Below, one piece after another: positions 21,370-38,389 of a stretch of DNA of 64,000 bases. Position numbers and translations under genes: made by a program. The stretch covers positions 96,001 through 160,000 of IMG/VR virus record IMGVR_UViG_3300036766_002288; one strand, 5' to 3'. Within the stretch, counting starts at the first letter, position 1. Each line of letters opens with the position of its first letter. Below the pieces are notes generated by a model. It was given only the letters and a program-made list of their open reading frames with translations. It had not been told where the DNA came from and searched no databases. The stretch is from a virus.

Positions 21370-22002
21370 TTACCCCATATAACCTGCTGAATGTTTTGGG
21401 TCTGGCAGATTTTGTTGAAGGATTCGGCGTAATTCAAAACTTGGATATTTCCCTTGAACTACTTTTATAATTTCTCCGTCCTCAACTTCTACTACTGTCT
21501 TTTTATCGCAAACAAACGTGGCAATGCCAGCACACATTCGATCCCCGCCATCCCCTGTATGTGCGGCATCTAGCCATTTGACACCTTCCCAAATAGTTTT
21601 ATATTTCAATTGCCATTCATATAAGTTGTCTTCTTTTGCCTTCCACGTTTCAATTGTGAATTCAGTTGGCTGATTTTTATGGTTGTGTTCCTTGAGAGTC
21701 TTAGAATCAACGGTTCCAGCAACCCATTGAAGTAAATCGCAACATTGACCAAGACTGCCCTCTAATACATTATGATAGGGCACATCTTCAAGTGACCTAA
21801 ACATCATAGGGTCAACAACTTTATAACCTTCATAAATATTAGCATTAAGAATTACATTCACACCTACACTAGAATCTTCTGGACCACCTGATAGTCCACT
21901 CAATTTACCTGCCAGACCAGTTACAAAACTATAATGATTGACAAAAGCTCGCAGAAGATGAACTTCTGTTTTATGGTTTGGATTTACCCTATTTGATCTC
22001 AT
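21370..22002 (-). CDS. Hypothetical protein
   Basis: 210-aa ORF. Confidence 0.55.
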   Translation of the reverse strand: MRSNRVNPNHKTEVHLLRAFVNHYSFVTGLAGKLSGLSGGPEDSSVGVNVILNANIYEGYKVVDPMMFRSLEDVPYHNVLEGSLGQCCDLLQWVAGTVDSKTLKEHNHKNQPTEFTIETWKAKEDNLYEWQLKYKTIWEGVKWLDAAHTGDGGDRMCAGIATFVCDKKTVVEVEDGEIIKVVQGKYPSFELRRILQQNLPDPKHSAGYMG

Positions 22003-22003
22003 G

Positions 22004-22681
22004 TTATAATTCCCGTAAAAATAAATCTCTGAAACAGTTTTCCACCTCTACAGTTATATTAGCACAAAAATGTGAAATGTCAATTTCCTTCATGTCACAG
22101 TGGCGTTTTACCCACGGAGATAACGCAGCATAGAAACCAGAAACTTTACCAACAGAAATCCAGCACCCTATATCTTTTGCCATTTCTTTAAATTGCTCCT
22201 CATCTTTAATTTTAGAATCCAGGAGTTTTTTAGTTTGTTTCAACTCATTTTGGATTGTTAGAAAATCAACTTTGTCCAGACCCACTTCTTTCAGGGTCTT
22301 CACTTTTTCAATATTGTCGAATTTCTTTTTCCAAATTTTCCACCGAACCCAAGCCTTGTCTCCAATTAAGCACCAAGTAGATATCAATGGATGGGTGTTA
22401 CCAATTTCCACAGCTTTTAACATTTGAAGTTGAGCCATGACATACAATTTATAATCTTTAGGGTCGATTAATCCCCTTGTTTCCTTCTGCAATTTGTAGC
22501 AATATTTAAACAAAGTGCTATTGCGTGGATCACCCTTTTTAGGGTAACTAGTCTTAGTCTTGCAATCAGGGAAAACTTTTTGAGAAGATTCTATCCACAT
22601 GAGTCCAATTTTGTATGCAAGAGCCTGTTCGTCGGTCATACTATATTCAATGATTGGTTCAAGGTTGTAAGCTTCGTCCAT
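22004..22681 (-). CDS. Hypothetical protein
   Basis: GGAG RBS before ATG 22681 (MDEAYNLE). Confidence 0.6.
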   Translation of the reverse strand: MDEAYNLEPIIEYSMTDEQALAYKIGLMWIESSQKVFPDCKTKTSYPKKGDPRNSTLFKYCYKLQKETRGLIDPKDYKLYVMAQLQMLKAVEIGNTHPLISTWCLIGDKAWVRWKIWKKKFDNIEKVKTLKEVGLDKVDFLTIQNELKQTKKLLDSKIKDEEQFKEMAKDIGCWISVGKVSGFYAALSPWVKRHCDMKEIDISHFCANITVEVENCFRDLFLREL

Positions 22682-22692
22682 AAGAGTCTCCG

Positions 22693-23868
22693 ATGAAAAA
22701 GATTTATATTCCATCAAATCTAGATTTGCCAAAAATACTCAAAGACCAATATTCTGATACGGATTTAGACAAATTCCACTATTTTATCCATTTGATCTAT
22801 GAACAACGAATACTATACAAAAATCCAGAAGAATATATCCCACTAAAGGCAGAATATCTGAGAGCAATCATAGTAAGGGATTACAACCGTTATCGCAACA
22901 TCCTAATCGACAAAAACATTATTGACTGTGACGGCAGATATATCAAGGGACAAAAATCTTTAGGTTACAAATTATTACCACCATACTCAGAAGTTAAGCA
23001 TAAGCAAATCATCCTCAAAAATAAACTAATTCTAAAAAACATTGAAAAATGGAAGGCTAAAAGACTTCCTAAAACCAAAGTGCATCAACACTTATATAAA
23101 TTCTTGGATAAGTTAATGATTGATAGTGATGGGGCTTTAGAATCTATTAAGGATTTAAATGTAGTTGAGTATAATTTTTGTGAGTTAGCTATAAACAAGC
23201 TATTGGATAAAGATTTTTTCCTTATTTCTGATGATTACGGTAGAGTTCATACAAATATTACTAGTTTAAAATCATCTCTTAGAAAATTTATCACTTATGA
23301 AGGTAAAGAACTTTACAACGTTGATATTGTCAATTCTCAACCTCTTATTTTGCTTTTAATTCCCTTCCTCTCTAATACCATACGCTGTACATTTTCAGAC
23401 TTTCTTGAAACAGACAAATTAGACATTTTCAAATACAAGGAATTGGTGGAGAAGGGAGAATTATACGAATATTTGATGAACAATTCCAATTTTGATGATT
23501 ATTTGATAGAACAGAACAAAGAATATGACAGAGAGCCGTTTAAAGAGACCTTTTTCAGGGAAGTTTTCTTTGGAAAGAAGGTTAGTGGCTATTTCTGGGA
23601 TTTATTCCCATCTGTGGCAAATATTATAGCTCAAGTCAAAAAAGATGATTACAGAAGTTTGGCTTGGATGATGCAAAGAGCAGAATCAGATTTGATAATA
23701 AACAAGATATGCGGTAGAATCATGGAAGAATATCCAAAATGTTTCATTTCGACAATCCATGACTCCATTCTGACTACCGCAGAGCATGTGGATAAGATAA
23801 AAAGCATTATGTTGGAAGAATTTAAGAAACTAGGGCTATTGCCTTCGATTAGAATAGAACCTGCATGA
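22693..23868 (+). CDS. Divergent family-A/T7-RNAP-superfamily polymerase (TV-Pol-like)
   Basis: DDYGRVHT, motif A NVDIVNSQP, F..VFFG, MQRAES, motif C TIHDSI; no exonuclease domain. Confidence 0.6.
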   Translation: MKKIYIPSNLDLPKILKDQYSDTDLDKFHYFIHLIYEQRILYKNPEEYIPLKAEYLRAIIVRDYNRYRNILIDKNIIDCDGRYIKGQKSLGYKLLPPYSEVKHKQIILKNKLILKNIEKWKAKRLPKTKVHQHLYKFLDKLMIDSDGALESIKDLNVVEYNFCELAINKLLDKDFFLISDDYGRVHTNITSLKSSLRKFITYEGKELYNVDIVNSQPLILLLIPFLSNTIRCTFSDFLETDKLDIFKYKELVEKGELYEYLMNNSNFDDYLIEQNKEYDREPFKETFFREVFFGKKVSGYFWDLFPSVANIIAQVKKDDYRSLAWMMQRAESDLIINKICGRIMEEYPKCFISTIHDSILTTAEHVDKIKSIMLEEFKKLGLLPSIRIEPA

Positions 23869-25142
23869 ATCTTATTCCAATAGCTGTAAAACTTGAGAGT
23901 TTACTACAAGCTGGTGCTTATGTTTTTATAAGCATAGAACCTGCTATCGTAGACTTTACGCGCAATAACATTTCTTTTAAATTCAAAATACTTACTGAAC
24001 TAGGGGACATGACCCTTGAAATGAAGGATGATTTTCTTGAAATCTTAGAGTTTGCCAAAACAGCGATTTTCAATAATAAGGAAATTATGATTATTGGCTG
24101 GGACTTGAAGAATTTGTTTAGTACGGTTTTGTTTAAGACAGGTAGTCAATTTGAAATTGAGAATAAGTTTCTAGATTTGAAGGTTGCGGAACATTTCATA
24201 GGCATTAGAGAGAAGCCACCTACTGACTTTTCCGAGATGAAGGCACGGGTTAAAGTTCTCTTTGCAGATTCATCTTGGCCTAAGTTCAAGCAGATTTACC
24301 AAAAGATTTACTTACCGTTAATTACTGAAGTCATACCTTCCATAGAGTGTGAAGGTATGCTTGATTCCAAAGACCGAAAGATGCTTTATCCTTACTATGA
24401 AATCGAAGGACAGGTGAATGGCAGGCTGTCCTGTAATTTGGCTTATGAAAACTGCATTAACCCACATTCAATGTCTCAAGAACAGAAGGCAATATTATTG
24501 CCAAAAGGTAGGGATTGTTCGTTTTTAAGCTTTGACTTTAATTCAATGGAGGTTTGTACACTTGCTTGGTTGAGTGGGGATGAAGAGTTGAAGGCGATGG
24601 TCAATGGAGATTTTTATAGGTCTTTGTTTAAACTGATTTCTGGCGCGGAGTGTGATACGGATGAGAAAAGAGGATTTTGTAAAAAGATATTCCTGCCTGT
24701 ATTTTATGGAGAATCTGCTAAGGAATTGGCAAAGAACCTTAATTTTAGTGTGGAAACAGCGTATAAAGTAATTGGTAAATTAAAGGCATTATTCCCAAGG
24801 GTATTTTCTTGGGTTGATGAGTATGTTCACGAAAATGAATGTGTGGACTATTATGGGAGAAAAAGAAGATTTTCTTTTGAAGAGAGTTATAAATACAGAA
24901 ATTTCATAATTCAGTCACCTGCTGCTATAGTTTGCCTGGATAGGTTGGTAAGACTGCATCGCAACCTTGGCAGTTATGGTAAGTTGGTGGCTCATATTCA
25001 TGATGGTTACGTAGTAAAAGTCAGTGATGGTTATATAGAAATTGCTAAATCATTATGTCTTGATTCGTTACAATCAGATAGTTCGATATGTCCAGGGCTA
25101 AGTTTGAAGTCTAATTTCAAATTTGGTAAGACTTTAGCTTGA
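23865..25142 (+). CDS. polA: Compact family A DNA polymerase with degenerate 3'-5' exonuclease region
   Basis: NGRLS, motif A DFNSMEV, motif B R..CKKIFLPVFYG, YYGRKR, IQSPAA, motif C HIHDG. Confidence 0.8.
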   Translation: MNLIPIAVKLESLLQAGAYVFISIEPAIVDFTRNNISFKFKILTELGDMTLEMKDDFLEILEFAKTAIFNNKEIMIIGWDLKNLFSTVLFKTGSQFEIENKFLDLKVAEHFIGIREKPPTDFSEMKARVKVLFADSSWPKFKQIYQKIYLPLITEVIPSIECEGMLDSKDRKMLYPYYEIEGQVNGRLSCNLAYENCINPHSMSQEQKAILLPKGRDCSFLSFDFNSMEVCTLAWLSGDEELKAMVNGDFYRSLFKLISGAECDTDEKRGFCKKIFLPVFYGESAKELAKNLNFSVETAYKVIGKLKALFPRVFSWVDEYVHENECVDYYGRKRRFSFEESYKYRNFIIQSPAAIVCLDRLVRLHRNLGSYGKLVAHIHDGYVVKVSDGYIEIAKSLCLDSLQSDSSICPGLSLKSNFKFGKTLA

Positions 25143-25198
25143 TTTAACAAATTTTTATAGTATTATATTTGGTTAGGCAAAATTTCTTTGGAGGTAGA

Positions 25199-25762
25199 GT
25201 GAACAACGGTATTTCTGATAGTTTTCCGATTTCTAATGAAGAATACATGAATTTGGATAAGGATTTTGGCAAGTTAGCTAAGAAACAGGCATGGGAGTTA
25301 TTGAGGAAAAACACAAAAAACAATCATACAGACGATTTTGAAGACGTTAATCAAGAAGTAATTATGGCATTGCTGAGAGCAGGTTCATATTACAAAAGGC
25401 AAATTTACATAGAAAATTGTTTAGAAGTGGCAAAATTATATGTTAAAGATGAGTTCATTGCAAAGATTGTTGAAGAATTAGGTAAGCTTTGGGAAAATAG
25501 AAAGCGTCACGGTGCAAATAGACAAAAATTTGGTCAACCACAAGAACAATTGCTAAGTAGGGTAATGAAGAAATTTGTGCCACCTTCTGCTCGTCCTGAC
25601 AAAAATGCTCCATTAAAAATAGACGAAAAGTTTGCAACTTATTGTAAAGCCATTACTTGGAATGCTCAAAAGAGCATGGGCAGAAAAATCACTAAGGAAA
25701 AAGTTCTTAGAACTGGTATGGCTAGTTTATCGGATTTTGATTATCTTGGGAACGAGGAGTAA
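25199..25762 (+). CDS. Partial sigma factor (region 2 only; gp55-like late sigma candidate)
   Basis: EDVNQEVIMALLRA resembles region 2.2 and KFATYCKAITWN resembles region 2.3; about 187 aa; GGAGG before GTG 25199. Confidence 0.55.
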   Translation: MNNGISDSFPISNEEYMNLDKDFGKLAKKQAWELLRKNTKNNHTDDFEDVNQEVIMALLRAGSYYKRQIYIENCLEVAKLYVKDEFIAKIVEELGKLWENRKRHGANRQKFGQPQEQLLSRVMKKFVPPSARPDKNAPLKIDEKFATYCKAITWNAQKSMGRKITKEKVLRTGMASLSDFDYLGNEE

Positions 25763-25769
25763 AATTAAC

Positions 25770-26012
25770 ATGAAATGGGATGATTATTTCGTATTTGGTG
25801 CATCAACTTTATTTTCTGGATGTGTTTCTGGGATTTTATCAGCAGCGAATCGGTATTTACCACTTTCTTGGGTCGCTGTTGGATTGGGTGCAGTAGCCGT
25901 TTTAGCTGTTTGGGTTGGGGTTTACGAGAAAAAGAGGCAAGAGAAAGCCTCGGCTGAGGAAGCGGCGGCTTTCAAAATTAGGATGGAGAAAATTGATGAA
26001 GAAGCGGTATGA
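25770..26012 (+). CDS. Small membrane protein with two TM helices (holin-like topology)
   Basis: Two hydrophobic stretches and a charged C-tail; GAGGAG RBS. Confidence 0.5.
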   Translation: MKWDDYFVFGASTLFSGCVSGILSAANRYLPLSWVAVGLGAVAVLAVWVGVYEKKRQEKASAEEAAAFKIRMEKIDEEAV

Positions 26013-26235
26013 TAGAGCGGAATACAAGAATAGAAAACTTCTAACTCCATACGATCATTGGGAAGATGTTTGGTCTGTATTTCAGGAAACCATTGATAGG
26101 GCTGGACTTGATAATTCAATGGGCGATTCTAATTACCTGATTGGCAGATACATATACGAAAAAACAAAGTACGACAAAAAAGAATTTATTGCTACTATTG
26201 AACAATATCTTAAAGAGAATGAAGCACATGATTGA
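25996..26235 (+). CDS. Hypothetical protein
   Basis: GGAG upstream of ATG 25996. Confidence 0.45.
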   Translation: MKKRYDRAEYKNRKLLTPYDHWEDVWSVFQETIDRAGLDNSMGDSNYLIGRYIYEKTKYDKKEFIATIEQYLKENEAHD

Positions 26236-26785
26236 ATATGTGGTAGTGTATGCGTATACAGTGAAACCTGGGAAGACCTATGTTCCACTGATTCTGAAAA
26301 AGAAGCCACCGCATTTGGAAGGTATGCTTAATCTTCCTGGGGGCAAGATAAATCTAGGTGAAGACCCTGTTGCTGCGGCATTAAGGGAGCTTAAGGAAGA
26401 AACTGGCCTGGAAGAAGTACAAGAATATGACCCAATGGTATATTGTCCATCTGAGTATATGGGCGTAATTAATGGTGGTACTTGCAATATTCATGCGGTC
26501 AAAGTTCCAGTTGTATTTCAAGATTTGAAACCAGGCCCAGATGAGATTGAAGAAGTTGGCTGGTTCCCCATTCCTGAATTGTATGAATTGCCTAATCTTA
26601 TGCCTAATCTTAGGGTTATGATGCCTTTGATTGAAAATGGTGTCAAGGGCTGGGTAATTTCAGATTTAGATGGCGGGTGGCGAGATTCAAGCCATCATAC
26701 GGTCAGACTTTTTATGGAGCATCTTGATAATCCTTGGGATATTGAAGTCAAGTCCGTTGGATATTTTAAGGGAGAACGAAAATGA
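26228..26785 (+). CDS. NUDIX hydrolase
   Basis: Nudix box GGKINLGEDPVAAALRELKEETGL. Confidence 0.9.
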   Translation: MIEYVVVYAYTVKPGKTYVPLILKKKPPHLEGMLNLPGGKINLGEDPVAAALRELKEETGLEEVQEYDPMVYCPSEYMGVINGGTCNIHAVKVPVVFQDLKPGPDEIEEVGWFPIPELYELPNLMPNLRVMMPLIENGVKGWVISDLDGGWRDSSHHTVRLFMEHLDNPWDIEVKSVGYFKGERK

Positions 26786-27852
26786 AATTTGATAATTTAA
26801 TTGCTGACTACGTTTTCCCTTTAAGGGATGCTCTTGAGACCATTATTGTTGGACAAAAGCACGTTATCAAACGTGTTGTTATGGCATTATTTGCCGTAGG
26901 TCAAAGAGACTTTTTTGCTGATGGCACTAAGTTTCTTGGCACTGGTCACGTCCTATGTGAAGGGGGCACAGGTACGGGCAAGACTGTAATGTGTAAAGCA
27001 TTGGCAAGGTTATTGGCTGGTAATAACAAACGTGTTAGCGGTATGCCTGATGCACTTGCTAGTGATATAACTGGTTGTGAAATTATTCTTCTAAACGGCA
27101 ATACTAAGACTGTTAGAGGTCCGCTTTTCTGCAATGTTATTTTAGCTGACGAAATCAATCGTTTCCCACCAAAGGCGCAAAACGCTTTTATTGAAGCCCT
27201 GGCAGAAGGGTCAGTTACGATTAGCAACGACACTTATCGTTTGGAGCAACCATTTTTCTGTTTAGCAACGCAAAATCCAACAGAACAAAAGGGTACTAGT
27301 CGTATTCAAGAAGCTCTTGCTGACCGATTTATGTTTAAGTTGGTAATGAGAGAGACTACGGAAGCGGAAAAAGTAGAGATTGCACGGAAGACCCACAATT
27401 TTGATTTGTCTGCATTGAAGCAGATTGTTGATAGTGATACGGTTTGTAAGATTAGAAATGAATTATTTGAACACACGTATGTCAGTGACCCGACACGTAA
27501 GTATTGTGCAAGGTTATTGCACGCTATTAATCATCCTGAACTATTTGGATTATTCACGGATGAACTTAAGACTTTGGGGACTGATCCATTGTTCAAGCAG
27601 CGTCCTGCTTTGAATGACCGTGCCATGTTGCATTTAGAAGGTGCGGCGATGATGGAAGCGGTCATGAATGGTAGGGATTATGTAACACCGTATGATGTGG
27701 TATCGGTTGCACCTGATGTATTTAGAGTTAGGTTGATCGTGTTTGATTCCTCGCTCCACCTTTTGACTTCGACATATCCAGAGAGGTATTTGGCTGAGAC
27801 TAAGTTGATTGACTACTTAATCAATGAGACTTTGAATAAGGTGGGAATGTGA
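26782..27852 (+). CDS. moxR: MoxR-family AAA+ ATPase
   Basis: GHVLCEGGTGTGKT, ILADEINR, ATQNP, ALADRF. Confidence 0.9.
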   Translation: MKFDNLIADYVFPLRDALETIIVGQKHVIKRVVMALFAVGQRDFFADGTKFLGTGHVLCEGGTGTGKTVMCKALARLLAGNNKRVSGMPDALASDITGCEIILLNGNTKTVRGPLFCNVILADEINRFPPKAQNAFIEALAEGSVTISNDTYRLEQPFFCLATQNPTEQKGTSRIQEALADRFMFKLVMRETTEAEKVEIARKTHNFDLSALKQIVDSDTVCKIRNELFEHTYVSDPTRKYCARLLHAINHPELFGLFTDELKTLGTDPLFKQRPALNDRAMLHLEGAAMMEAVMNGRDYVTPYDVVSVAPDVFRVRLIVFDSSLHLLTSTYPERYLAETKLIDYLINETLNKVGM

Positions 27853-28058
27853 TTAAGTATGCTTGGAAATATGATGATGGTTCTTATTATGCTTGGTGTA
27901 GTTCTTGGGGATTCCATTGTCGTAGTATAGAGGCAGCACACCTTACCGACACTATTGAGGAGTGGGCTAGCTGTACAGCTGAGGGTAAGCCAGTTATGAT
28001 TGATGTGTTTGGTGAACTTAAATATCCGTGGAATCCGACCCGCAGAGAAATAATATGA
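27849..28058 (+). CDS. Hypothetical protein
   Basis: 69-aa ORF, coupled. Confidence 0.4.
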   Translation: MIKYAWKYDDGSYYAWCSSWGFHCRSIEAAHLTDTIEEWASCTAEGKPVMIDVFGELKYPWNPTRREII

Positions 28059-28756
28059 CACTGAATAATGGACAAGAAGTTAGAATCGCACTGAAATCAA
28101 GACCCCCTGACAACAAATGGGGTCTTTATGGAAGTGTTTATTGTGAAGAAGCAAAAACTTATCGCAAACGTCGTCTAATACTTCCTAAAGATTTTGTAAA
28201 AGGTCTATTCTACATGGAAGCTGGATGTGGAATGGACGGTTGGATGGGTGCAACAAGATTTCAAATTGATGAAGTAATAGGCGATGAAGCTAAGATTTCT
28301 GTTTATTCATTAGGAAATAAAAGCAGGGGAAAAAAAGATAAAATTATTCAAGTTGCGTGGCCGCACGAATTTATAGCCGATGAACAGTCAGATGAAGTTC
28401 TGTATGAACTTTATAAAAAAGGCGTTTTTGTAAAAGGTTATGCCCACAAAGAAGTTTCTTATTTCACAGAAAAGATGAAGGAACAAGACAAAATTACTAC
28501 TGACAAATATAGGCCACAAGTTGAGCAGGCTATTAAGGATGGTAAAGCCAAAATAGAATTTGAAATTTGTGAGGTTAGAGAAGGTATTGAATACTATCGT
28601 GCAAAATGTTATGTAGATGGTTTACATGTGCCGCCTGCATTTGGGTTTACTCGTAAAGACTCCATGTATGAGTCATATTGGGATGAATGTGTTATGTTGT
28701 TAGCCAGAGAATTAGGGTTTGTGCCAAAGAATGAGAGAGGATATTTTGTAGAATGA
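28055..28756 (+). CDS. Hypothetical protein
   Basis: Start at ATG 28055 overlapping the previous stop. Confidence 0.55.
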   Translation: MTLNNGQEVRIALKSRPPDNKWGLYGSVYCEEAKTYRKRRLILPKDFVKGLFYMEAGCGMDGWMGATRFQIDEVIGDEAKISVYSLGNKSRGKKDKIIQVAWPHEFIADEQSDEVLYELYKKGVFVKGYAHKEVSYFTEKMKEQDKITTDKYRPQVEQAIKDGKAKIEFEICEVREGIEYYRAKCYVDGLHVPPAFGFTRKDSMYESYWDECVMLLARELGFVPKNERGYFVE

Positions 28757-28947
28757 ATCATGAATGGCAGTTATTCGTCACGACTGAAAATTATGACTAT
28801 GGTGGGGTAGATTTCTATCATTGGTGCAAATGGTGTGGTTCTATGAAGAAAGTGCCTGGCAGAGTGGATAAGCAAACTATATTCTATCTTCCAGGGCGTA
28901 AATCCATACCAAATTGTGAGGAATGTGTGGGGGATATAAATGAGTGA
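28753..28947 (+). CDS. Small Cys-containing hypothetical protein
   Basis: CxxC twice; coupled. Confidence 0.4.
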   Translation: MNHEWQLFVTTENYDYGGVDFYHWCKWCGSMKKVPGRVDKQTIFYLPGRKSIPNCEECVGDINE

Positions 28948-29131
28948 TTATTTAATCATTACAATGAAGGTCGTTCCTTACGATAACGTTTCCCCTGATA
29001 GTATTGAAAAGGAAATTGGAAACCAAACCACAAATTTACCCTGCAACAATCTTTTGTCTTGGGGTGGGTTGGGACCATTAGGAAAAATTTATGACGTGAA
29101 AGTTAGCCGTTCTCCTAAAGAATCATTATGA
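28940..29131 (+). CDS. Hypothetical protein
   Basis: 63-aa ORF, coupled. Confidence 0.4.
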   Translation: MSDYLIITMKVVPYDNVSPDSIEKEIGNQTTNLPCNNLLSWGGLGPLGKIYDVKVSRSPKESL

Positions 29132-29958
29132 AGAAGAATTTTCGTTCATTAGAACTGATAGCTAAAAAGTATTTAGATACTTTTTCTTCTGGTATTCACG
29201 GCACGCTTCTGAAGGATAGTCTCATCGAAGTAGATGTTATAAGGGAATATCAGCCTGGAGATAAAAGATTAGATTCTAAATCCAGTTTGAAAACTGGCAA
29301 AACAATGTCCAGGGTGTTCAATCCTGAACGGTCTCTTAATTTATTTATAATGTTGGATGTTAGTTCCTCCCAATATACGAAATTAGAGTCAGCGGTAATT
29401 ACCGCTCTCTACATGTCTTATTTGGGAGATATTTGTAACGAGAAGATAGGGTTATGTGTTTTTTCAGACCATGTTACTTCGGTTGTTGATGTAACAGACG
29501 ATTATTCTTCGGTTGTAGGCACAATAGAAAAGTCCTTGCAATCTTTGAAGATGGACTCGGTTACAAGCGTCAATGATGCCGTAAATAAAGTATCTAATTT
29601 GTTTTTATCAAATTCTTTGATTGTGCTTATATCTGATTTTTGTTATCCTTTGAATGATAAACTTTTGAATGATGTAAAAAAGATGGCATTATTGCCCACG
29701 AATAACTTTGTTAGTGTTGTGTTGCACAATCCTAATGATTGGATGTTATCGGTATCGGAATCTTTTAACATTACTTTGAAGGATGCTGAGAGTGGACAAG
29801 TTTCAAATTTTAATTTGAAATCAGCACAGGCTCAATATGATAAATGGCAAGCTAATTTGAAAACCAAGTTAGCTCGTTGTAATAGTGATGTTGTGTTTTT
29901 GAATGTCAAGGAAGAGAGATTTTTACTGCCATTGATAAAATATTTAATGAGGACTTGA
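29128..29958 (+). CDS. DUF58 / VWA-domain protein (MoxR partner)
   Basis: REYQPGD.R.D.K.S.K, MLDVSSS, LISDF. Confidence 0.85.
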   Translation: MKKNFRSLELIAKKYLDTFSSGIHGTLLKDSLIEVDVIREYQPGDKRLDSKSSLKTGKTMSRVFNPERSLNLFIMLDVSSSQYTKLESAVITALYMSYLGDICNEKIGLCVFSDHVTSVVDVTDDYSSVVGTIEKSLQSLKMDSVTSVNDAVNKVSNLFLSNSLIVLISDFCYPLNDKLLNDVKKMALLPTNNFVSVVLHNPNDWMLSVSESFNITLKDAESGQVSNFNLKSAQAQYDKWQANLKTKLARCNSDVVFLNVKEERFLLPLIKYLMRT

Positions 29959-29959
29959 T

Positions 29960-31483
29960 ATGAATTTTCTTGTATTGTTTACGTTGCTGTCTTTTATACC
30001 GCCTGATGATCCAATTATCGAACCTGCGCCTCCGAATCTTATTGCAGTACCGCCTGTAAAGGTGGTGCCGCGAGCGATGTTTAGTTTGGAAGATTTCCAT
30101 ATTTATGATGAAAAGCACAATCTACATGGATTGCCATTGACTCAAAAGATTTATGTAAGTGCCCCAAGTGACGAAGAAAAGAGACTTTTTATCAAGTTTG
30201 GTGAGAAACTTCCAGGCTTTACGGAGTTTTCGGTTATTGCCAACGGCATGAATAAGGACTTTAAGGGTTTGGTGCTTTTGTTCGACGAGAGGGGCAATGC
30301 TCTTAAGGCTTTAAATACTTGTTTGAAAGAAGGATATAGAGCCTTTCCTGTAGTAATTTATGACGATGTTGAGATGATTGTTCCTAATCAAGTAGTGGTC
30401 AGTATTCGGCCTAGTACTAGAAAGAGTGATTATTTTAAAAGATTGAATAAGGTGGCCGAAGGCAAGTTTGAAATTACAGAAATAGACAACAAAACTTTTT
30501 CTATTACTGCTAAAGAGATTGTCAATCCATCAAATATTTTAGTGTTATCGAATTTGATTTCACAAGATACTTTCTGGGTTAGTTGGGCATTGCCTGCTTT
30601 CGTACCATTGAATGGATATATTTGGGCTACAGCAACAATTGAAACACCGTCTTATACTAACCTTGGGCAGGAACGCATTCTGAAGGTGGATATTAGTGTA
30701 TTCGATCCTAAAATTGTTGTTAAGCTCGATTTGTTGCCACAAATGGGGCCAAGTTTGTATCCGTTTCCAAATGCTGGTGAAAATTGGCTTGATGTTAAAC
30801 CACCTCAAATCACAGAGACTGTTACTGCGACCAAGCGAGTAATTAGTATTTCATATCCATTTAGATATTTGCAGTTTGGCAATTTTGTATTTCAGCCAAT
30901 TGCGATATCCTATGAGAAGAATGGCAAGTTGATGCAAATAGGAACAAATACATGTCGGTTTGTCACTAAGAGTGTGATATTTGGCACTAATATCGAAGAC
31001 TTACAACCAGAGTCTTATTCTCCCAATTTAGCTATGTTGCCCGCTGTTAAGCCAGTACAGACTCAAAAAGAATATTTAGGCGTGTTGGCTGGCGATGCCA
31101 AGTTGATTGTAACAGGCTCGTTTGGTGTGGTTGGTGGAGTGTTGGTATTATTTTGGGCAGCTAGTTTACTTCCTATGTTGACTAGTATATTTAATAATAA
31201 TCCTGGTGAACATTTATGGGAGCAATTGGATGCATGTCTGGATTTAGACCTAGAGGAAGATTGGCATCATGCTTATACTGCGATATCTTCTAGTTTGAAT
31301 GCTGTGTTGGTCCGAGACTTTGGCGTATCCCTTTATTCTTTGACTCCTGAACACTGTACAGCGAATTTTTCAGAGTTGCTCGCTGAGTTGAACAAGTTGT
31401 ATATGTGCGAGGAACATGTAGAGCCAGACTTTAGTGTATTGGAACACTCATTGATAGAGTTCTGCCGAAAACGTGAAATATGA
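29960..31483 (+). CDS. BatD-like exported/membrane protein
   Basis: N-terminal signal, beta-rich periplasmic region, C-terminal TM helix; position in the MoxR-VWA cluster. Confidence 0.5.
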   Translation: MNFLVLFTLLSFIPPDDPIIEPAPPNLIAVPPVKVVPRAMFSLEDFHIYDEKHNLHGLPLTQKIYVSAPSDEEKRLFIKFGEKLPGFTEFSVIANGMNKDFKGLVLLFDERGNALKALNTCLKEGYRAFPVVIYDDVEMIVPNQVVVSIRPSTRKSDYFKRLNKVAEGKFEITEIDNKTFSITAKEIVNPSNILVLSNLISQDTFWVSWALPAFVPLNGYIWATATIETPSYTNLGQERILKVDISVFDPKIVVKLDLLPQMGPSLYPFPNAGENWLDVKPPQITETVTATKRVISISYPFRYLQFGNFVFQPIAISYEKNGKLMQIGTNTCRFVTKSVIFGTNIEDLQPESYSPNLAMLPAVKPVQTQKEYLGVLAGDAKLIVTGSFGVVGGVLVLFWAASLLPMLTSIFNNNPGEHLWEQLDACLDLDLEEDWHHAYTAISSSLNAVLVRDFGVSLYSLTPEHCTANFSELLAELNKLYMCEEHVEPDFSVLEHSLIEFCRKREI

Positions 31484-32541
31484 TTGATAATCCTTATTTC
31501 CTGCTGCTTTTCCTAGTATTTCTGGCGTATTTATACTTCTGGAAATCTAGGAAATTCTATTTCCGTCATCCTTGTATGGAAAATCTCTCAACTTATAATC
31601 CAAGATTATGGTTGAGATGGGAATTTTTCATGCTAATGGGTGCTGCGTTTCTGGTGATGGGAGCGTGTAATTTCGTCTGGAAGACCAAAGAGAGTTTTAG
31701 GGTTAGTTTAGTCCATAAGTATGTTTTGATTAATGATGGCAGTGGCTCAATGGTGGATTATAACAAGCCAAATGGCATCGGCAAAGAACTGACTTCTGTT
31801 TTATCAGGCAATGCCAAGTTATTTGAGTTCTTAGGCAAGCGGCAAGATGGTAGTAAGGACTTGGTTGGTGCCGTCGTATTTTCTAGTGACTCGTATGTAG
31901 TTTCATTCTTATCAGATGATCCAGAGTTTGTGCATAAGAAACTAAAAAGGGTGGATTATAGGCTTCCGCCTATGAATCAGGGGACATATGTAGGAATTGG
32001 TCTGTGGACTGGTCTAGAAATGGTTTTGTCTCACGACAAGTCGATCAGTCAAAGTGACCTTGACCACTTGCAATTGAAATTCTATGGTGCAGGACACAAT
32101 ATCAAAAAAGATAGTGTTACTGAGGCTCTGGTTGCGAACAAGAATGTGTTTGCAGGAAGCTCGCTCATATTCTTCACAGATGGGATTTTCGATTATCCTG
32201 AAGGTAATCCCAGGATAATGTCCACTTACAAGATCATTAATTTTTGTAAGGATATGGGTATTAGGGTCTATTTCATATCTATATTCCAATTGGACCCACT
32301 TATCATAAGATACTGTAAGGATTCTGGGGGCAGAGGAGAACTTATTACGGATGGTTACAACAAGAAAAGATTAGAAGAGATTTACGAAGACATAGTAACT
32401 AGTCAGGCTAAGGAATATACAATAAAAGAAGAAAGTGTAGATAGGTCATTAGGTACTATTTTAGGTTTAATTGGTTTGGCTTTAGTATTATGTGGATTGG
32501 TTTTACACAACACAAAACAGTTGAATTTTACAGAGGTTTAA
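31480..32541 (+). CDS. BatA-like membrane-anchored VWA protein
   Basis: Two N-terminal TMs, MIDAS DGSGS...T...FTDG, C-terminal TM. Confidence 0.8.
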   Translation: MIDNPYFLLLFLVFLAYLYFWKSRKFYFRHPCMENLSTYNPRLWLRWEFFMLMGAAFLVMGACNFVWKTKESFRVSLVHKYVLINDGSGSMVDYNKPNGIGKELTSVLSGNAKLFEFLGKRQDGSKDLVGAVVFSSDSYVVSFLSDDPEFVHKKLKRVDYRLPPMNQGTYVGIGLWTGLEMVLSHDKSISQSDLDHLQLKFYGAGHNIKKDSVTEALVANKNVFAGSSLIFFTDGIFDYPEGNPRIMSTYKIINFCKDMGIRVYFISIFQLDPLIIRYCKDSGGRGELITDGYNKKRLEEIYEDIVTSQAKEYTIKEESVDRSLGTILGLIGLALVLCGLVLHNTKQLNFTEV

Positions 32542-32543
32542 AC

Positions 32544-33344
32544 ATGAAGAAGTTATTGTTTGGTTTGGGATTTCTTGCACTAGCTTGTGCATCCTTTGTT
32601 TATTTAGGGCACAAAGAAACTCAGTTTTCTAATGCTGATTTCAGAGTTGCAGAAGACGATTATTTTAACCAACTTAAGTTCAATAAGGTTAATGGGATGT
32701 TTAATAAGGCAAATTCAGAGAGTAGTCTTGCCATAGTTGAAGCGTTATATTTGGGGACATTGGATGAAGTTGCTGAAGCAAGAATGGGGCCTTATGTTAC
32801 TTTGAAGAAGGCTTCATTGTTGTTTAATCAAGGGGAATACTATTTGCATAGGGCGGAAGAGATTGAGTTTTCTTTATCCTCGCCGCCTAAGCCAGCAGGT
32901 CCACCAGATGTTGACCCAGAGAATCCAAATGTAGAGCCAATAGCCGCCCCGAACGAACAGAGGAAATATCATCCTTTGACAATACAGATGTTGCAGAAGG
33001 CTACGGATTCTTATGAAGCTGCTAGAAAAGAAGTTGACAAATTGTCAGAAAATACTGATATTGAGTTCAATTTTGGAATGAATTATCTTAAGGGTGAGAT
33101 TTACTATCGCTTTTTAGAATTCATGTCAGATAGTGATACTGCACAAGAGTTATTCAATCAGACATTGAACTATTACAAGATAGCTCTTAGGCACAAACCT
33201 GGGGATATCAATACGGTGGTAAACATTGAAATCCTAATTAAGAACCAGAATGATTTTTTATCTAATGCTAGTAATCCACAAGTGAAGCGTAAGCAAATGT
33301 TGAATGTTCGTAAGGCTGGACTTGGTTCGTCAAAGGGGAACTAA
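32544..33344 (+). CDS. BatC-like TPR protein with N-terminal anchor
   Basis: GAGG RBS; helical repeats ending YYKIALRHKPGDINTVVNIEIL. Confidence 0.6.
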   Translation: MKKLLFGLGFLALACASFVYLGHKETQFSNADFRVAEDDYFNQLKFNKVNGMFNKANSESSLAIVEALYLGTLDEVAEARMGPYVTLKKASLLFNQGEYYLHRAEEIEFSLSSPPKPAGPPDVDPENPNVEPIAAPNEQRKYHPLTIQMLQKATDSYEAARKEVDKLSENTDIEFNFGMNYLKGEIYYRFLEFMSDSDTAQELFNQTLNYYKIALRHKPGDINTVVNIEILIKNQNDFLSNASNPQVKRKQMLNVRKAGLGSSKGN

Positions 33345-33345
33345 C

Positions 33346-34368
33346 ATGCTGTTTGATAATCCAGTCTATCTGTGGTTGCTACTTATTTCTGCACCAATAG
33401 CGATTCTTTTATTGAACACTATTCGTTTGTTCATGAGATTTCATAACAAGATAGCGGAAGAGTTTTTCGCTTATAGTAAATTCCCTTCTTACCTTAGAAG
33501 AGGTATTAGTCATGGCGGTTATATTGCTGCGTTGATATTTCTTATTGTAGGCTTGGCGGAACCATACATTATGGTGAACGTCAGGGATAAGGAATATAAG
33601 GATATGCGTCTTTTGTTTGTATTAGACGTTTCCAGGTCTATGGTCTATGCGGAAGATGTTTTACCAAATCGCATGGAAGCGATGAAAAATCATGTGAAGG
33701 ATTTTTATCTGCATTTAGATGGCCTGTATGAGTGTGCTATTCTTCCTTTTGCTGGTGATGCTAATCCATACTTTTGTCCTTTGACCAAGAGTAGGACTTC
33801 ATTTGTGGCGATGGTGGAAGAATTGGATTGGCGTTCAGCACCAGTATTGGGCACAGATTTAACTCGGGCAATGCAGTCTGTGCAAGATGTGTATATCAAG
33901 CAGGATAAGATTGATAAATCTGGATTTAACATTATCATATTGATATCTGATGGTGGCAAAGAAGAATCCGTGGCCACCAATAGAATTGAATTATTGAAAA
34001 TTGCGCGGGAATTGGCAAAGAAGAATTTCAAAATTTACACGGTTGGTGTTGGTGGTGAGAAACCTTGTCCGTTGGTGGTAAGGGATAGCAAAGGTGGTTT
34101 TAAATCTTACGTACTTGGCGACAACAACCAGCCTGCAACTTCGCAATTAGATGAAGAAATTTTGAGGCAACTTGCGTCGATTGGTCACGGCAAGTATTAT
34201 AGCCTAAATGCTTCTACCGCTTTAGCTTCCGACTTGAAGGAAATTGTTAAGGAGAATCAAGCTCTTATTACAGAGCAGATTCGACCAGAAAAATTTCCTT
34301 TACAGGGATACTTATTTTCTGTTACAGTCTGCCTTCTATTCGGCTGCATGTTACTGAACAAGGTATAA
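33346..34368 (+). CDS. BatB-like membrane-anchored VWA protein
   Basis: MLFDNPVYLWLL start, LDVSRSM.AED..PNR, GTD, ISDGG, LDEEIL..LA..G.G.Y. Confidence 0.85.
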   Translation: MLFDNPVYLWLLLISAPIAILLLNTIRLFMRFHNKIAEEFFAYSKFPSYLRRGISHGGYIAALIFLIVGLAEPYIMVNVRDKEYKDMRLLFVLDVSRSMVYAEDVLPNRMEAMKNHVKDFYLHLDGLYECAILPFAGDANPYFCPLTKSRTSFVAMVEELDWRSAPVLGTDLTRAMQSVQDVYIKQDKIDKSGFNIIILISDGGKEESVATNRIELLKIARELAKKNFKIYTVGVGGEKPCPLVVRDSKGGFKSYVLGDNNQPATSQLDEEILRQLASIGHGKYYSLNASTALASDLKEIVKENQALITEQIRPEKFPLQGYLFSVTVCLLFGCMLLNKV

Positions 34369-34372
34369 AGAA

Positions 34373-35935
34373 ATGGATAAGCTAAATGACCAAGACCAAG
34401 TAATCATTAATTCCTTTATTGATCCTGATAAAACTGGTGTAGAGCCAAAATACCCCTTTGATGAGGAATTTCTTAGGGTTGTTCTAGGCACACTTCTTTG
34501 CAATCGTTATTTCATTTGTCAGGGCATCAACCTGATAAAGCCGATTTATTTCAGAAGTGAAATACATCAGGTCATATGCAGGACTCTATTTACATATTTC
34601 GAGCAATATAGACAGCAGCCTAGCAAGGTATTTCTTCGTGAGTTAGTAGATGAGTATCTTAAGAAGAGATACAATAACCAGGAAGATACTTACCGTGCTA
34701 TTCGTTTGATATATCAGACTGAAATTAACTTAGTCTACGACTATTACACAAAGGGTGGTAGTGGTAGCATTATGCTCATGGTGGATTCTCCAGAAGCTAT
34801 TTTGGACAAGATCACCAGTTTTGCTAAAACACAAGCCATTAAGATTGCATTTGCTAAATCTGTGGACTTGATTAGAAGAAATCCAGAATCAGATGAGACT
34901 TTTGATAAAGTGGATTTGTTGTATAAGGAAGCGAGATTAGTAAATCGTAATATAGATTTAGGTTTGAATTATTTTGAGACTTTGGAAGAACGATATGCGA
35001 GAACCCAAGAAAATGTAGAAAAGGCAGAAACTTTTTGTAGTGGCTTCAGGTCTATTGATAGTGGTTTGATGGGTGGTGGTTTGGTCCGTGGTGAGATGGG
35101 TGCTTGGATGGGTGCTTCAGGTACGGGTAAGAGTTTAGCGTTGACATGGGCATCTGTTTGCAATATTCAAAAAGGCAAAAAGGTTCTGTATATTTCAACA
35201 GAAATGGACCCAGACCGCATTGCCACTAGATTTGATGCCCAATTAACACATATTGGCCATCATCAATTAATGCTTAGGCAGGAGGAAGTGTGGGCAGCGT
35301 TAAGAAGGCAGGTGGATGAATATGAGGATAAGAGAAGGTTAGTCATTAAGCAATTCCCAAGTGGCAGTGCGGATATGACTACCGTAAGGGCGTATTATTC
35401 GCAAATCACTTCTATGGGCTTCAGGCCAGATTTGGTTATATTTGATTATCCTGGTGATATGAAGGATAATTCTAATCTATCTGGCTGGGATTCACGTTTT
35501 AGATTGTTGAGAGAGATTCGTGGTTTTGGTGTAGAAGAAAAACATTGTACATTTATTGCAGTTCACCCAAATAGAAGTGTTTCTGAATTGGGTCTTGAGG
35601 AGTTCATGGATGAGAAGAATCAGGGTGATTCTTTTAAGCAATTCCAGATATTTGATGCATTTTGGACATTGAATCAGACAGCGGTGGAGAATAAAGCGAA
35701 TGTTGGTAGAGGATTTGTTGCCAAGGCAAGAAATGGTAAGTCAAAGTTTTCGTTTAAGATTCGCTATCATTTTGACGATCAAACTTTGAGATTGGAAGAG
35801 ATAAGTCATCAAACCTATATGGGATTCATGACGAAGACCCAGGATGCAGATACGGATCACACAGAAACAGTAATTGATAAGGTCAGTGTTGAAAAAAAGA
35901 AATTTGAACCATCTGATGGCGAGAGAATTGGCTAG
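34373..35935 (+). CDS. Replicative DnaB/gp41-like DNA helicase
   Basis: GASGTGKS, STEM, LVIFDY, KARNG. Confidence 0.88.
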   Translation: MDKLNDQDQVIINSFIDPDKTGVEPKYPFDEEFLRVVLGTLLCNRYFICQGINLIKPIYFRSEIHQVICRTLFTYFEQYRQQPSKVFLRELVDEYLKKRYNNQEDTYRAIRLIYQTEINLVYDYYTKGGSGSIMLMVDSPEAILDKITSFAKTQAIKIAFAKSVDLIRRNPESDETFDKVDLLYKEARLVNRNIDLGLNYFETLEERYARTQENVEKAETFCSGFRSIDSGLMGGGLVRGEMGAWMGASGTGKSLALTWASVCNIQKGKKVLYISTEMDPDRIATRFDAQLTHIGHHQLMLRQEEVWAALRRQVDEYEDKRRLVIKQFPSGSADMTTVRAYYSQITSMGFRPDLVIFDYPGDMKDNSNLSGWDSRFRLLREIRGFGVEEKHCTFIAVHPNRSVSELGLEEFMDEKNQGDSFKQFQIFDAFWTLNQTAVENKANVGRGFVAKARNGKSKFSFKIRYHFDDQTLRLEEISHQTYMGFMTKTQDADTDHTETVIDKVSVEKKKFEPSDGERIG

Positions 35936-35968
35936 CATTATTTGGTCTATTATGGTAAAAGGTGATAT

Positions 35969-36484
35969 ATGCTTGAAGAAAAAAGAAAAGTAAATGTGAA
36001 TGGTCAAGAAGTGGTTCTTGACTCTGGTAAATTATTTTTTAGTGAAGGAACACTGGATAATTATCTAGAAGTTGAAGGCGGCTGGATTGATTATTTTGGA
36101 GCAAAACTCGCGGATGCTGAGCGACAGCTAGCAGAGTGGGAAATGAAAGTTGAGATTGAAGAAGATGAATATGAGCGGGTATATGCCAGAGTATTCAGCA
36201 CGATTAAATCTACGGAAGGCGGCTCAGATAAGTTGGTCGAAGGTCAGACTAAGATAGAAGCCACAGTCGTAGCCGCAAAAACCAAAGTTCAAGAATATAG
36301 AGAAAAGGCTATTGCTTACAAACATGCTGTGAATATGCTTAAACAGCACTTACGCGCATGGGATAAAAATCATGAAAATGCACAAAATCGCGGTAATACG
36401 TTAAGAAAAGAAATGGAAAGGTTACATAAGGATCGTTTCTTAGATGACAAGATTGACGATATTATTAAACATGTAGATGTATAG
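35969..36484 (+). CDS. UvsY-like recombination mediator
   Basis: Coiled-coil protein of UvsY-like size and pattern, next to the helicase in a T4-like module. Confidence 0.5.
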   Translation: MLEEKRKVNVNGQEVVLDSGKLFFSEGTLDNYLEVEGGWIDYFGAKLADAERQLAEWEMKVEIEEDEYERVYARVFSTIKSTEGGSDKLVEGQTKIEATVVAAKTKVQEYREKAIAYKHAVNMLKQHLRAWDKNHENAQNRGNTLRKEMERLHKDRFLDDKIDDIIKHVDV

Positions 36485-36494
36485 GAGTTTGCAA

Positions 36495-37121
36495 ATGAAT
36501 CGGCGTGAAGTTATTGCATTAGGTGCTAGTATAGTTTTTTCTTTACCTGCACAAGCGGCCAAGAAGTCTGAAAAATGTCCTTGTGTAGATCAAGACAAGA
36601 AGGCTACTAATCCATTAGAAAGAAAGCACGCTCAGATTTGTGCTTTCCACATTGGATATGATGACTCTAAGTTGCAAATTGAAACAACTCATTATTGTAC
36701 TGCTGTAGGGGACGGAGTGTTTCAATGCATACTATATGATTCACCTGAAAAAGATGCTAAGTTAATTGGTGTTGAGTATGTTGTTACAGAGCAGGTTTTC
36801 GGTCAACTACCCCAAGAAGAAACTAAATTATGGCATCCTCATAGATTTGAAATTGAGGAAGGTTTGTTTACTATTCATAAAGTGACTAAAAACTGTGAAG
36901 AAACTTTGTTGAAGGCTTTGTATAGTTCTTGGGGCAAAACATGGCAAACTTGGCCTGACGTAACTAGCAAGGTTCCAATGGGTAAACCAATTCTTATGTG
37001 GTCTGCTAGACAGGCGAATGAGGTCGATCCAAAGTTAATTCAAAAGCGGGATAAGAAATATAATATTAAAATAGAGGATGTGAAGAAATCCAGAGAGTTT
37101 TTAGGGGAGGGACAAAAGTGA
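36495..37121 (+). CDS. DUF1264 (OBAP-like) protein with Tat-like signal
   Basis: AFH, IETTHYC, QCILYDS..AKLIGVEY, LWHPH..EI..G; MNRREVIALG...AQA leader; AGGAG RBS. Confidence 0.75.
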   Translation: MNRREVIALGASIVFSLPAQAAKKSEKCPCVDQDKKATNPLERKHAQICAFHIGYDDSKLQIETTHYCTAVGDGVFQCILYDSPEKDAKLIGVEYVVTEQVFGQLPQEETKLWHPHRFEIEEGLFTIHKVTKNCEETLLKALYSSWGKTWQTWPDVTSKVPMGKPILMWSARQANEVDPKLIQKRDKKYNIKIEDVKKSREFLGEGQK

Positions 37122-37474
37122 AAGATTACTATTTCTTTTTCAAAGATGGTATGCCTTTAGCTGTGTTCTTAACAGAATTCATGGGCGATGCGATGGATTT
37201 ATTTGGACGCCTTTATAGACAGTCTTGGTCTGAGTCCATCCGCGAAGGCGTAACGGTTATCAAGGAAAAAGATGTTGACCCTGAAGTTTGGCAAAGAGTT
37301 CATGATGAATATAAGGCTCAAGCTGAATTAAAGAATCAGATAGAAGAAAGTAAGCATAAGCTTGAATAGGAAGCAGCACAAGCAAAATTGGCTAAGGCAA
37401 ACTTAATTGCACCAAAACCCAGAATTATTGAGCATGGTTCTACCATGTTAGAGACTGCGAAATATATGAAATGA
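37118..37474 (+). CDS. Hypothetical protein interrupted by an in-frame TAG at 37367-37369
   Basis: Frame stays open for 34 more codons to a TGA overlapping the next ATG. Confidence 0.55.
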
Positions 37475-37770
37475 ATATGAAAGCTCCTACCTGTAAATTA
37501 GGTAAATTTATCATCAAGTATAAGCAAGTGCTTTATGATGATAGGTATTTTTTTGTTTCTCACGAAGATTGTAGGATGTGTGGTGCATTATCTCGCAAGC
37601 ACATAATCCAAATTCCAGGTGGCTTGGTTAAGGATACCACCATATCTTTATTTGATTGGTTAGTTCAGTCTTGTGCAAAAGAATATAGAAGGAATTATTT
37701 GGACAGAATAGAAAGATTCATGGGTAGAATAGAGCGGTATGACGAATGTTTAGACTCAGATATGAGGTAA
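37471..37770 (+). CDS. Hypothetical protein
   Basis: 99-aa ORF with CxxC. Confidence 0.5.
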   Translation: MNMKAPTCKLGKFIIKYKQVLYDDRYFFVSHEDCRMCGALSRKHIIQIPGGLVKDTTISLFDWLVQSCAKEYRRNYLDRIERFMGRIERYDECLDSDMR

Positions 37771-37775
37771 CATAA

Positions 37776-38378
37776 GTGGTTGACCCGATAAATTTTACTA
37801 ATTTTAATCGTAACACTTACGAACTAGAAGAAACATTGCTTTTTGGGCTTTTGGTAGCTGGCAAGAATGCTATTACGACTTCTAGGTTATTAGACAACTT
37901 CATTAAAGACTTCAAATATGAGGATGAGACTCCATTTGAAATCTTTAGGCGATTCAATGCAGATGAAGTGCCTACGTTATCTGTAGCATTGAAAGATTAT
38001 GGTTTTGGTTGTTACAACGCTAAGGCCAAGGGTATTCATCAACTCGTTAGAGCAAATCTCGATTTGAAAACCTGCACTGTCGATGACCTTGAGAAGATTC
38101 ATGGCATCGGCATGAAAACATCACGTTTGTTTGTGCTACACACCAGGCAGAATGCTAAGTGTATTCCTTTGGATGTTCATATTTTGCATTATCTAAGGGA
38201 TTTAGGATATGAAGTTCCTAAAGCAACTCCAGACAAGACGAAGTATTTAGCTATTGAGAAAATTTGTATAGGACTCGCTAAGAAGGCGAAGAAGACTTGC
38301 TCAGAATGGGATTTGGGTATTTGGCGGATGTATAGTAGCAAATCCTATGGTATGAATAAAAGTAAATTAGCAATATAA
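37776..38378 (+). CDS. HhH-GPD DNA glycosylase (Ogg/endonuclease III-like, no FeS cluster)
   Basis: LEKIHGIGMKTSR HhH motif and IPLDVHIL catalytic Asp. Confidence 0.8.
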   Translation: MVDPINFTNFNRNTYELEETLLFGLLVAGKNAITTSRLLDNFIKDFKYEDETPFEIFRRFNADEVPTLSVALKDYGFGCYNAKAKGIHQLVRANLDLKTCTVDDLEKIHGIGMKTSRLFVLHTRQNAKCIPLDVHILHYLRDLGYEVPKATPDKTKYLAIEKICIGLAKKAKKTCSEWDLGIWRMYSSKSYGMNKSKLAI

Positions 38379-38389
38379 GGTGATTAAAA

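Follow-up and report, generated by a model that had tools for sequence, protein, structure and literature searches.

A reduced and rearranged Bat-type MoxR operon in a clade of megaphages

Among the bacterial envelope gene clusters that still lack a mechanism, Bat-type MoxR operons rank with the most widespread. Named examples are BatI of B. fragilis, bb0170-bb0176 of Borrelia, cmdA-D of R. leguminosarum, and the bat genes of Leptospira and R. anatipestifer. An operon of this type is described here in the DNA of a huge phage. The DNA analyzed, referred to as the window, is a stretch of 64,000 nucleotides that covers bases 96001-160000 of the 187-kb IMG/VR record IMGVR_UViG_3300036766_002288, and the record is itself a piece of a 590,099-bp contig. 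Ten open reading frames (ORFs) on the plus strand are packed in window 26782-34368, and six of them encode a MoxR ATPase, a DUF58 protein, a 'mini-BatD', and BatA-type, BatC-like, and BatB-type proteins. Judged by its protein sequences, the module is very probably the bacterial MRP-type MoxR 'Bat' envelope operon in a phage-adapted form. Purifying selection maintains it at a constant position within a replication gene block. Bat operons themselves are known from bacteria; what is new here is a rearranged and reduced Bat operon, with a domain-extended mini-BatD, that is fixed in a megaphage clade.

In bacteria, Bat/cmd operons have been associated with the integrity of the envelope and with tolerance to stress (PMC5700661, PMC11834572). 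In viruses, MoxR-vWA pairs occur in Acidianus two-tailed virus (p618/p892) and in group 2.2 jumbo phages, and a role in virion assembly has been proposed for them (PMC7824862). No published account of DUF58 or Bat proteins from a virus was found. In the DefensePredictor and Planktothrix papers, apparent mentions of 'DUF58' together with 'phage' were in fact DUF5830 and DUF5895.

A scan of the phage BatB alignment against 185,579 species genomes provided 80 bacterial loci (L009-L088) from 12 or more phyla for comparison; the set is without Bacteroidota operons, which is a limit of the pattern-based scan. The gene order in these loci is MoxR-DUF58-X-BatA-BatB-BatC-BatD-BatE, where X is a protein of ~330 residues with DUF4381 and, in some loci, a BatD-type immunoglobulin (Ig) domain as well. 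The phage module resembles them in many respects. MoxR comes first and is followed by DUF58, a bitopic DUF4381/mini-BatD protein, and BatA. BatB-type and BatC-like proteins are present, the genes are tightly coupled, the ATPase motifs and the metal ion-dependent adhesion sites (MIDAS) are intact, and BatA and BatB share the layout with three transmembrane (TM) segments. The module differs in that it is carried by a phage, BatC sits between BatA and BatB, and between none and four small ORFs lie past moxR. Furthermore, two N-terminal ferredoxin-like domains of the phage mini-BatD are absent from X, and the phage BatA has an insertion of ~35 residues and has lost a hairpin region. The first-pass annotation, made from the window sequence alone, had called the operon near-complete. 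This needs qualification, as canonical BatD and BatE are missing from the cluster and the order of BatC and BatB is swapped. The genes and their flanks are as follows (window coordinates, strand in brackets).

26141-26785 (+): Nudix hydrolase, upstream flank, outside the system (NUDIX, 2.4e-14)
26782-27852 (+): MoxR (MRP-type) AAA+ ATPase, 356 residues, no TM segment
27849-28058 (+): small ORF, 69 residues, 4-nt overlap with the moxR stop; possible accessory gene
28028-28756 (+): orphan ORF, 242 residues, GTG start; unique to this phage
28753-28947 (+): small ORF, 64 residues, two CxxC pairs, zinc-ribbon-like
28940-29131 (+): small ORF, 63 residues
29128-29958 (+): DUF58 protein, VWA-like, 276 residues, no TM segment
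29960-31483 (+): 'mini-BatD', a bitopic membrane protein of the BatD/DUF4381 family, 507 residues
31480-32541 (+): BatA-type protein, 353 residues; two N-terminal TM segments, VWA domain with full MIDAS, C-terminal TM segment
32544-33344 (+): BatC-like protein, 266 residues, membrane-anchored, TPR-like
33346-34368 (+): BatB-type protein, 340 residues; two N-terminal TM segments, VWA domain with full MIDAS, C-terminal TM segment
34373-35935 (+): DnaB-like replicative helicase, downstream flank, outside the system (phrog_19, 2.3e-54)

Two starts were set by alignment with homologues: the ATG at 32544 for the BatC-like protein (listed ORF start 32490) and 33346 for batB (listed ORF start 33304). 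The tight one-strand packing described in the first-pass annotation is borne out, since neighboring genes overlap by 4 or 8 nt or lie 1-4 nt apart, with the sole exception of a 31-nt overlap at the GTG-started ORF of 242 residues. The helicase does follow 4 nt past the last cluster gene, batB. A promoter and terminator scan of 21000-39500 gave no signal above that in shuffled sequence.

Identification of the cluster as Bat-type is secured by Pfam matches, profile comparisons, and intact motifs. MoxR, the first gene of the cluster, matches AAA_3 at 7.3e-39 (above the Pfam cut-off) together with AAA_lid_2. Its Walker A (GGTGTGKT), Walker B (ILADEIN), sensor 1 (ATQN), and DRF arginine finger motifs are conserved in phage and bacterial homologues. 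There is a secondary match to phrog_249 ('porphyrin biosynthesis', CobS/CobT-like) at 4.9e-13, which reflects the AAA+ clade shared with the CobS/CobT-like AAA+/VWA pairs of phages. However, AAA_3 is by far the best match, and the partners are DUF58 and Bat proteins rather than CobT. A cobalt or magnesium chelatase was rejected on account of these partners. The DUF58 protein matches PF01882 at 6.5e-16 (above the cut-off), and a profile of the phage proteins matches the bacterial DUF58 slot down to 1.5e-28. Its DxSxS motif, DVSSS, is retained in all phage and bacterial homologues. An intein lies exactly in the Walker A loop of MoxR (GTGK|C...HN|T) in two related phage contigs (L007:8861-10957 and L008:8774-10882), whose moxR products are 698 and 702 residues long, respectively. 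Besides a Hint domain, it has a LAGLIDADG homing endonuclease. No intein is present in the window moxR. The presence of the intein in the P-loop of two relatives fits a gene whose ATPase must stay active.

The two VWA membrane proteins differ in how readily they are recognized. The BatB-type protein matches VWA_2 at 6.6e-12 and VWA at 3.2e-9 (both above the cut-off) and NCBIfam BatB at 1.2e-23, which is below the equivalog-type cut-off of that model. Its DVSRS, GTD, and SDGG motifs are invariant in six phage copies, and the phage profile matches the bacterial BatB slot down to 6e-36. PF07584 (BatA_N) is a precomputed annotation on two of its phage homologues. For the BatA-type protein, single-sequence matches are weak (VWA_2 at 1.2e-3, below the cut-off; NCBIfam BatA at 6.7e-3), and the Pfam scan gave no PF07584 match. 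The phage BatA profile prefers the bacterial BatA slot by 43 to 6. The phage alignment is collinear with bacterial BatA, and D86, S88, S90, T169, and D234 are invariant, so that the DxSxS motif (DGSGS) and the MIDAS Thr and Asp are all kept. All three DxSxS motifs are intact, as had been claimed, and the phage BatA, BatB, and DUF58 profiles each match their own bacterial operon slot over the full length. All phage BatA proteins end in N(F/Y)TEV (NFTEV here, window 32509-32541), whereas bacterial BatA ends in R(K/R)xP.

The BatC-like protein is harder to place. The window protein has no Pfam, NCBIfam, or PHROG match, and a Pfam TPR match was obtained for one of the 26 members of its family. In hhalign, it matches the last repeats of bacterial BatC at 93.3% (E 2.8e-7), including the NLE signature, over only 73 columns. 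Its AlphaFold2 (AF2) model has a predicted local distance difference test (pLDDT) score of 84.3. The structural neighbors (VIA) are almost all TPR proteins, with Z values of 8-11.7 that lie below the caution level for helical repeats, and Foldseek with this model returned no match at E <= 0.001. The 'BatC-like' label of the first-pass annotation thus rests on the profile-profile match and not on family models. The protein comprises an N-terminal membrane anchor, a helical region, a proline-rich linker, a TPR-like C-terminal region, and a basic glycine-rich tail. The tail, ending in GN, is common to all phage BatC-like proteins (window 33300-33344). As for BatE, no SH3_3 or TPR+SH3 protein is present in the cluster, and the remaining phage genome was not searched for it.

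What is the 507-residue protein? The label 'BatD-like' was right at the level of the superfamily, but canonical BatD was rejected. BatD is a protein of ~600 residues with PF13584 repeats; a search for PF13584 came up empty at E <= 10 in the 187-kb record and at E <= 1 in the 595-kb relative LR756511.1 (all of it) and in three other records, and the 507-residue family matches true BatD at only 37% in hhalign. Only 62 representatives of the family occur among 1.84 billion proteins. Pfam, NCBIfam, and PHROG scans of the protein and its family gave nothing usable (the DUF4381 Pfam model itself is unmatched), and a single-sequence search of viral contigs with the protein found no viral locus; the alignment of the family contains no stretch of sufficient conservation for such a search. 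The answer came from gene X. Run against all 2301 ORFs of the bacterial loci, the family profile picks X almost exclusively, with a best value of 1e-10. In hhalign, the family matches 25 bacterial X proteins at 97.9% (E 3.2e-13, 260 columns), and the match spans phage residues 219-505 and nearly all of X. By these profile comparisons, the protein is the orthologue of the bacterial DUF4381/'mini-BatD' slot gene X.

The phage mini-BatD begins with a hydrophobic N-terminal leader, which is followed by two ferredoxin/RRM-like domains (~45-215) and an Ig-like sandwich (~220-338). A TM segment (382-400) then leads into a helical C-terminal domain (415-504). The AF2 model has a pLDDT of 84.9, and VIA matches it to ACT/RRM folds (Z 9.2) and to pilin Ig domains (Z 8.6). 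Foldseek of the model against PDB and BFVD gave generic Ig-like/TM glycoprotein and TRAP-beta-type matches only, with low TM-scores. In bacteria (loci L009-L088), X is clearly paralogous to the C-terminal half of BatD, with an hhalign probability of 99.3% (E 9e-21), and the two share the Ig-like domain, the TM helix, and the helical cytoplasmic domain. This paralogy may help the interpretation of Bat systems in general.

The same module was found in seven other huge-phage contigs (L002-L008), so the six-gene synteny does recur in viruses. In GenBank, the nearest relative is the record LR756511.1, an 'uncultured phage' of 595 kb. It has a terminase match, which supports the placement of the cluster in a phage. 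In it, the same six genes are contiguous, without the four small ORFs, and are followed by DnaB. Identities between the window and LR756511.1 are 77% for MoxR, 66% for DUF58, 37% for the 507-residue protein, 55% for BatA, 38% for the TPR-like protein, 55% for BatB, and 66% for DnaB. The IMG/VR contigs L003-L008 (39-436 kb) show the same gene order, and the order MoxR-(small ORFs)-DUF58-miniBatD-BatA-BatC-BatB is therefore found in all eight phage loci. A Nudix gene upstream of moxR and DnaB downstream of batB are present in L002-L007, and neither was detected in L008. Three further contigs came from a second viral contig scan, and members of the TPR-like and BatB families were found on contigs of 586-623 kb. 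Viruses outside this megaphage clade very rarely carry the module. Of 50,697 GenBank phage records, LR756511.1 alone has a DUF58 homologue, and a BatB-like protein is confined to that record and two small faecal fragments. One contig of 67.7 kb, assigned by binning to a Patescibacteria metagenome-assembled genome, encodes a phage-type mini-BatD relative and a BatB relative (MFH1759069.1 and MFH1759072.1) three genes apart, a spacing compatible with the gene order of the phages. Either this is phage DNA that was wrongly binned, or the phage-type arrangement also has a cellular carrier.

These relatives also bear on the question of whether the module is misassembled host DNA or a recently captured host operon that is decaying. 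The genes are of bacterial type, and IMG/VR labels the 187-kb record a 'provirus'. Yet the module recurs with its phage flanks in independent assemblies from several samples, the record belongs to the 590,099-bp contig, and G+C and skew are even across the region. All ORFs are intact, synonymous sites are saturated, and the ratio of nonsynonymous to synonymous substitution rates (dN/dS) is 0.02-0.38 across all six genes. The proteins are also far from any bacterial counterpart, as set out below. Because of the recurring module and flanks, the saturated synonymous sites, and the low dN/dS, both chimera and decay, which the first-pass annotation had named as the outcomes that could undo it, were ruled out, and an artefact or dead cargo is left with next to no probability. 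The same flanks and the purifying selection confirm that the cluster is well integrated. The 'provirus' label, also attached to two relatives, sits oddly with a source contig of 590,099 bp and with relatives that are huge phages; its probable cause is automatic trimming where bacterial-type genes are frequent.

The four ORFs noted after moxR are present, but they are a variable insertion and not fixed parts of the module, as related loci have none, one, three, or four. In L002, L006, and L008, moxR and the DUF58 gene are adjacent. The 69-residue ORF occupies the same place in L003, L004, L005, and L007 (62-78% identity), that is, in five of the eight loci, and is absent from L002, L006, and L008. 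It could encode an accessory subunit or regulator of the module. The 64- and 63-residue ORFs are kept only in L003 and L004 (63% and 50% identity, respectively). The 242-residue ORF has a counterpart in none of the seven related loci and is a recent insertion. None of the four matches a family in Pfam, NCBIfam, or PHROG.

Compared with bacterial proteins, MoxR reaches best identities of 32-42% (32-38% where the match is full-length), DUF58 of 21-28%, and BatB of 25-36%, so that the phage proteins stand at only 21-38% identity to bacterial ones. In a collection of 5.8 billion proteins, BatB identity is at least 40% within the phage clade and then drops to 37% or less. In a tree built from concatenated MoxR, DUF58, and BatB, the five phage rows group as a single clade with a Shimodaira-Hasegawa-like approximate likelihood ratio test (SH-aLRT) value of 100. 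The phage stem measures ~6.7 substitutions per site against 54 operons of 12 phyla, and the bacterial operons largely follow their phyla. A phylogeny against bacterial operons, proposed in the first-pass annotation, thus grouped the phages together but did not place the donor, because the phage genes form one very long branch. Bacteroidetes hosts have been reported for the largest Mahaphages (PMC7162821).

Where in the cell would these proteins act? TM segments are predicted in BatA and BatB (three each) and in mini-BatD (one), together with an N-terminal anchor in BatC, and none are predicted in MoxR or DUF58. Topology prediction, which the first-pass annotation had suggested, thus supports membrane components. 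In BatA (2-20, 49-67, and 320-338) and in BatB, two N-terminal segments and one C-terminal segment flank the VWA domain. The Borrelia BatA homologue BB0173 has three TM helices, and its VWA domain faces the periplasm (PMC5700661). The first-pass annotation had proposed an inner-membrane assembly machine, perhaps for exported proteins, exclusion, or membrane-associated virion assembly; of this proposal, the membrane location is the part that the predicted topology and the homology to BB0173 support. The mini-BatD family profile has a K/R-rich stretch past the TM segment, where bacterial X has RRR, and this stretch would place the helical C-terminal domain in the cytoplasm.

The membrane layout also separates the module from the viral MoxR-vWA pairs. 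Both have a virus-encoded MoxR-class AAA+ ATPase and VWA-domain partners, and a chaperone for the assembly of a very large capsid or tail, perhaps at the membrane, would follow that viral precedent (PMC7824862); a genome of ~590 kb requires an unusually large capsid. However, the viral pairs are two genes with soluble products, and the jumbo-phage vWA protein is fused to a metallopeptidase. The phage module consists of six genes among replication genes, with three-TM VWA proteins and, by the Pfam scan of the cluster, no peptidase domain. Four of the five partners of MoxR are membrane-anchored, the domain layout is that of envelope operons and not of soluble viral pairs, and the module lies in a replication/recombination block and not beside structural genes. 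A virion-assembly role is accordingly a poor prospect.

The position of the module brings up another explanation, in which it anchors the phage replication machinery and tethers or organizes a replication compartment at the inner membrane. The neighboring genes are those of DNA metabolism: DNA polymerase A, Nudix, DnaB, further helicases, a UvsX-like recombinase, and NAD synthetase. The window was assigned to a replication/recombination block because it encodes a free-standing LAGLIDADG homing endonuclease (14003-15154), a full-length NAD synthetase (19257-20957 on the minus strand; phrog_36784, 3.8e-104), the UvsX-like recombinase (42668-43876), and a helicase of 679 residues annotated as a Holliday-junction branch-migration helicase (46135-48174). 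Shortly past DnaB, at 36477-37121, lies a gene for a DUF1264 protein (match 4.8e-54), a member of an uncharacterized family. The place between Nudix and DnaB is invariant in seven of the eight loci, with translational coupling to both flanks, which favors anchoring. Position alone is weak evidence in phage genomes, though. No DNA-binding or replisome-interaction domain was found in the six proteins by Pfam, PHROG, and NCBIfam scans, and the bacterial homologues are unlinked to replication genes. Anchoring of replication is accordingly given very little weight.

The preferred model is that a Bat operon has been inherited vertically in a clade of ~590-620 kb megaphages and conditions or maintains the host envelope. 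Taken as a whole, this model is judged somewhat more probable than its negation. The module would probably be expressed early or in mid infection with the replication genes. MoxR and DUF58 would act at the cytoplasmic face because they have no TM segments. On the periplasmic side, envelope clients would be bound by the VWA/MIDAS domains of BatA and BatB, the TPR-like domain of BatC, and, in mini-BatD, the Ig-like and ferredoxin-like domains. The helical C-terminal domain of mini-BatD would be the only sizeable cytoplasmic part among the membrane components and is a likely docking site for DUF58 and MoxR. It would couple ATP-driven remodeling to the periplasmic VWA, Ig, and TPR domains. In this way, the host envelope may be conditioned or preserved during the long infection that so large a phage needs, and the phage module may supplement or replace the host's own Bat system. 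Alternatively, within the same model, it may serve the folding or insertion of phage-encoded envelope proteins. Considered by itself, the envelope-maintenance role, proposed by analogy with the bacterial operons, is tentative and falls a little short of an even chance.

Several observations weigh against this model. We know of no agreed role even for the bacterial Bat system. Deletion of all bat genes in Leptospira biflexa produced no phenotype (PMC3557215). The window's own mini-BatD is without the basic stretch that follows the TM segment in the family profile. The periplasmic orientation of the VWA domains was transferred from one in vitro study, and K/R counts around the TM segments are not decisive. 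For co-transcription with the replication genes, gene packing is the sole basis. Finally, as the cluster has no BatD or BatE, the phage complex may work unlike the bacterial one.

The same predicted topology would also suit a role in envelope-level exclusion or counter-defense. Here, periplasm-facing VWA, Ig-like, and TPR proteins whose assembly is powered by MoxR would alter the host surface or inner membrane and thereby block DNA injection by later phages or disable an envelope defense of the host. For huge phages, Al-Shayeb et al. remark that proteins of the membrane or surface may influence how susceptible a cell is to other phages (PMC7162821). The rates of divergence also appear to favor this possibility: identities among the phages are 27-61% for the mini-BatD ectodomain and 31-59% for BatC, compared to 70-90% for MoxR, and parts that face a changing partner are expected to evolve faster. 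However, dN/dS stays below 0.4, without a sign of positive selection at the whole-gene level, and the homologous bacterial operons track phyla like housekeeping genes. Furthermore, PADLOC models give only weak generic AAA matches for MoxR (DolB, 4.2e-7) and none for the other nine proteins. Exclusion is on balance unlikely, and conditioning or maintenance of the host envelope is preferred.

A stronger form of the envelope model can also be considered. In this form, the module would be a self-sufficient six-part trans-membrane chaperone that is essential for infection, either by remodeling or stabilizing the envelope or by inserting phage envelope proteins. This form is doubtful. If it is true, the C-terminal domain of mini-BatD would be the link between the MoxR-DUF58 motor and the periplasmic VWA proteins, and the phage version would define a minimal Bat core and offer a tractable route to its clients.

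For the Bat family, the phage module represents six of the eight usual genes, retained for a long time under strong constraint, with BatD and BatE dropped, and this points to a functional core. It also singles out a protein of the BatD/DUF4381 family as the probable membrane coupler. For megaphages, the list of host-like systems gains a multi-protein machine of the inner membrane.

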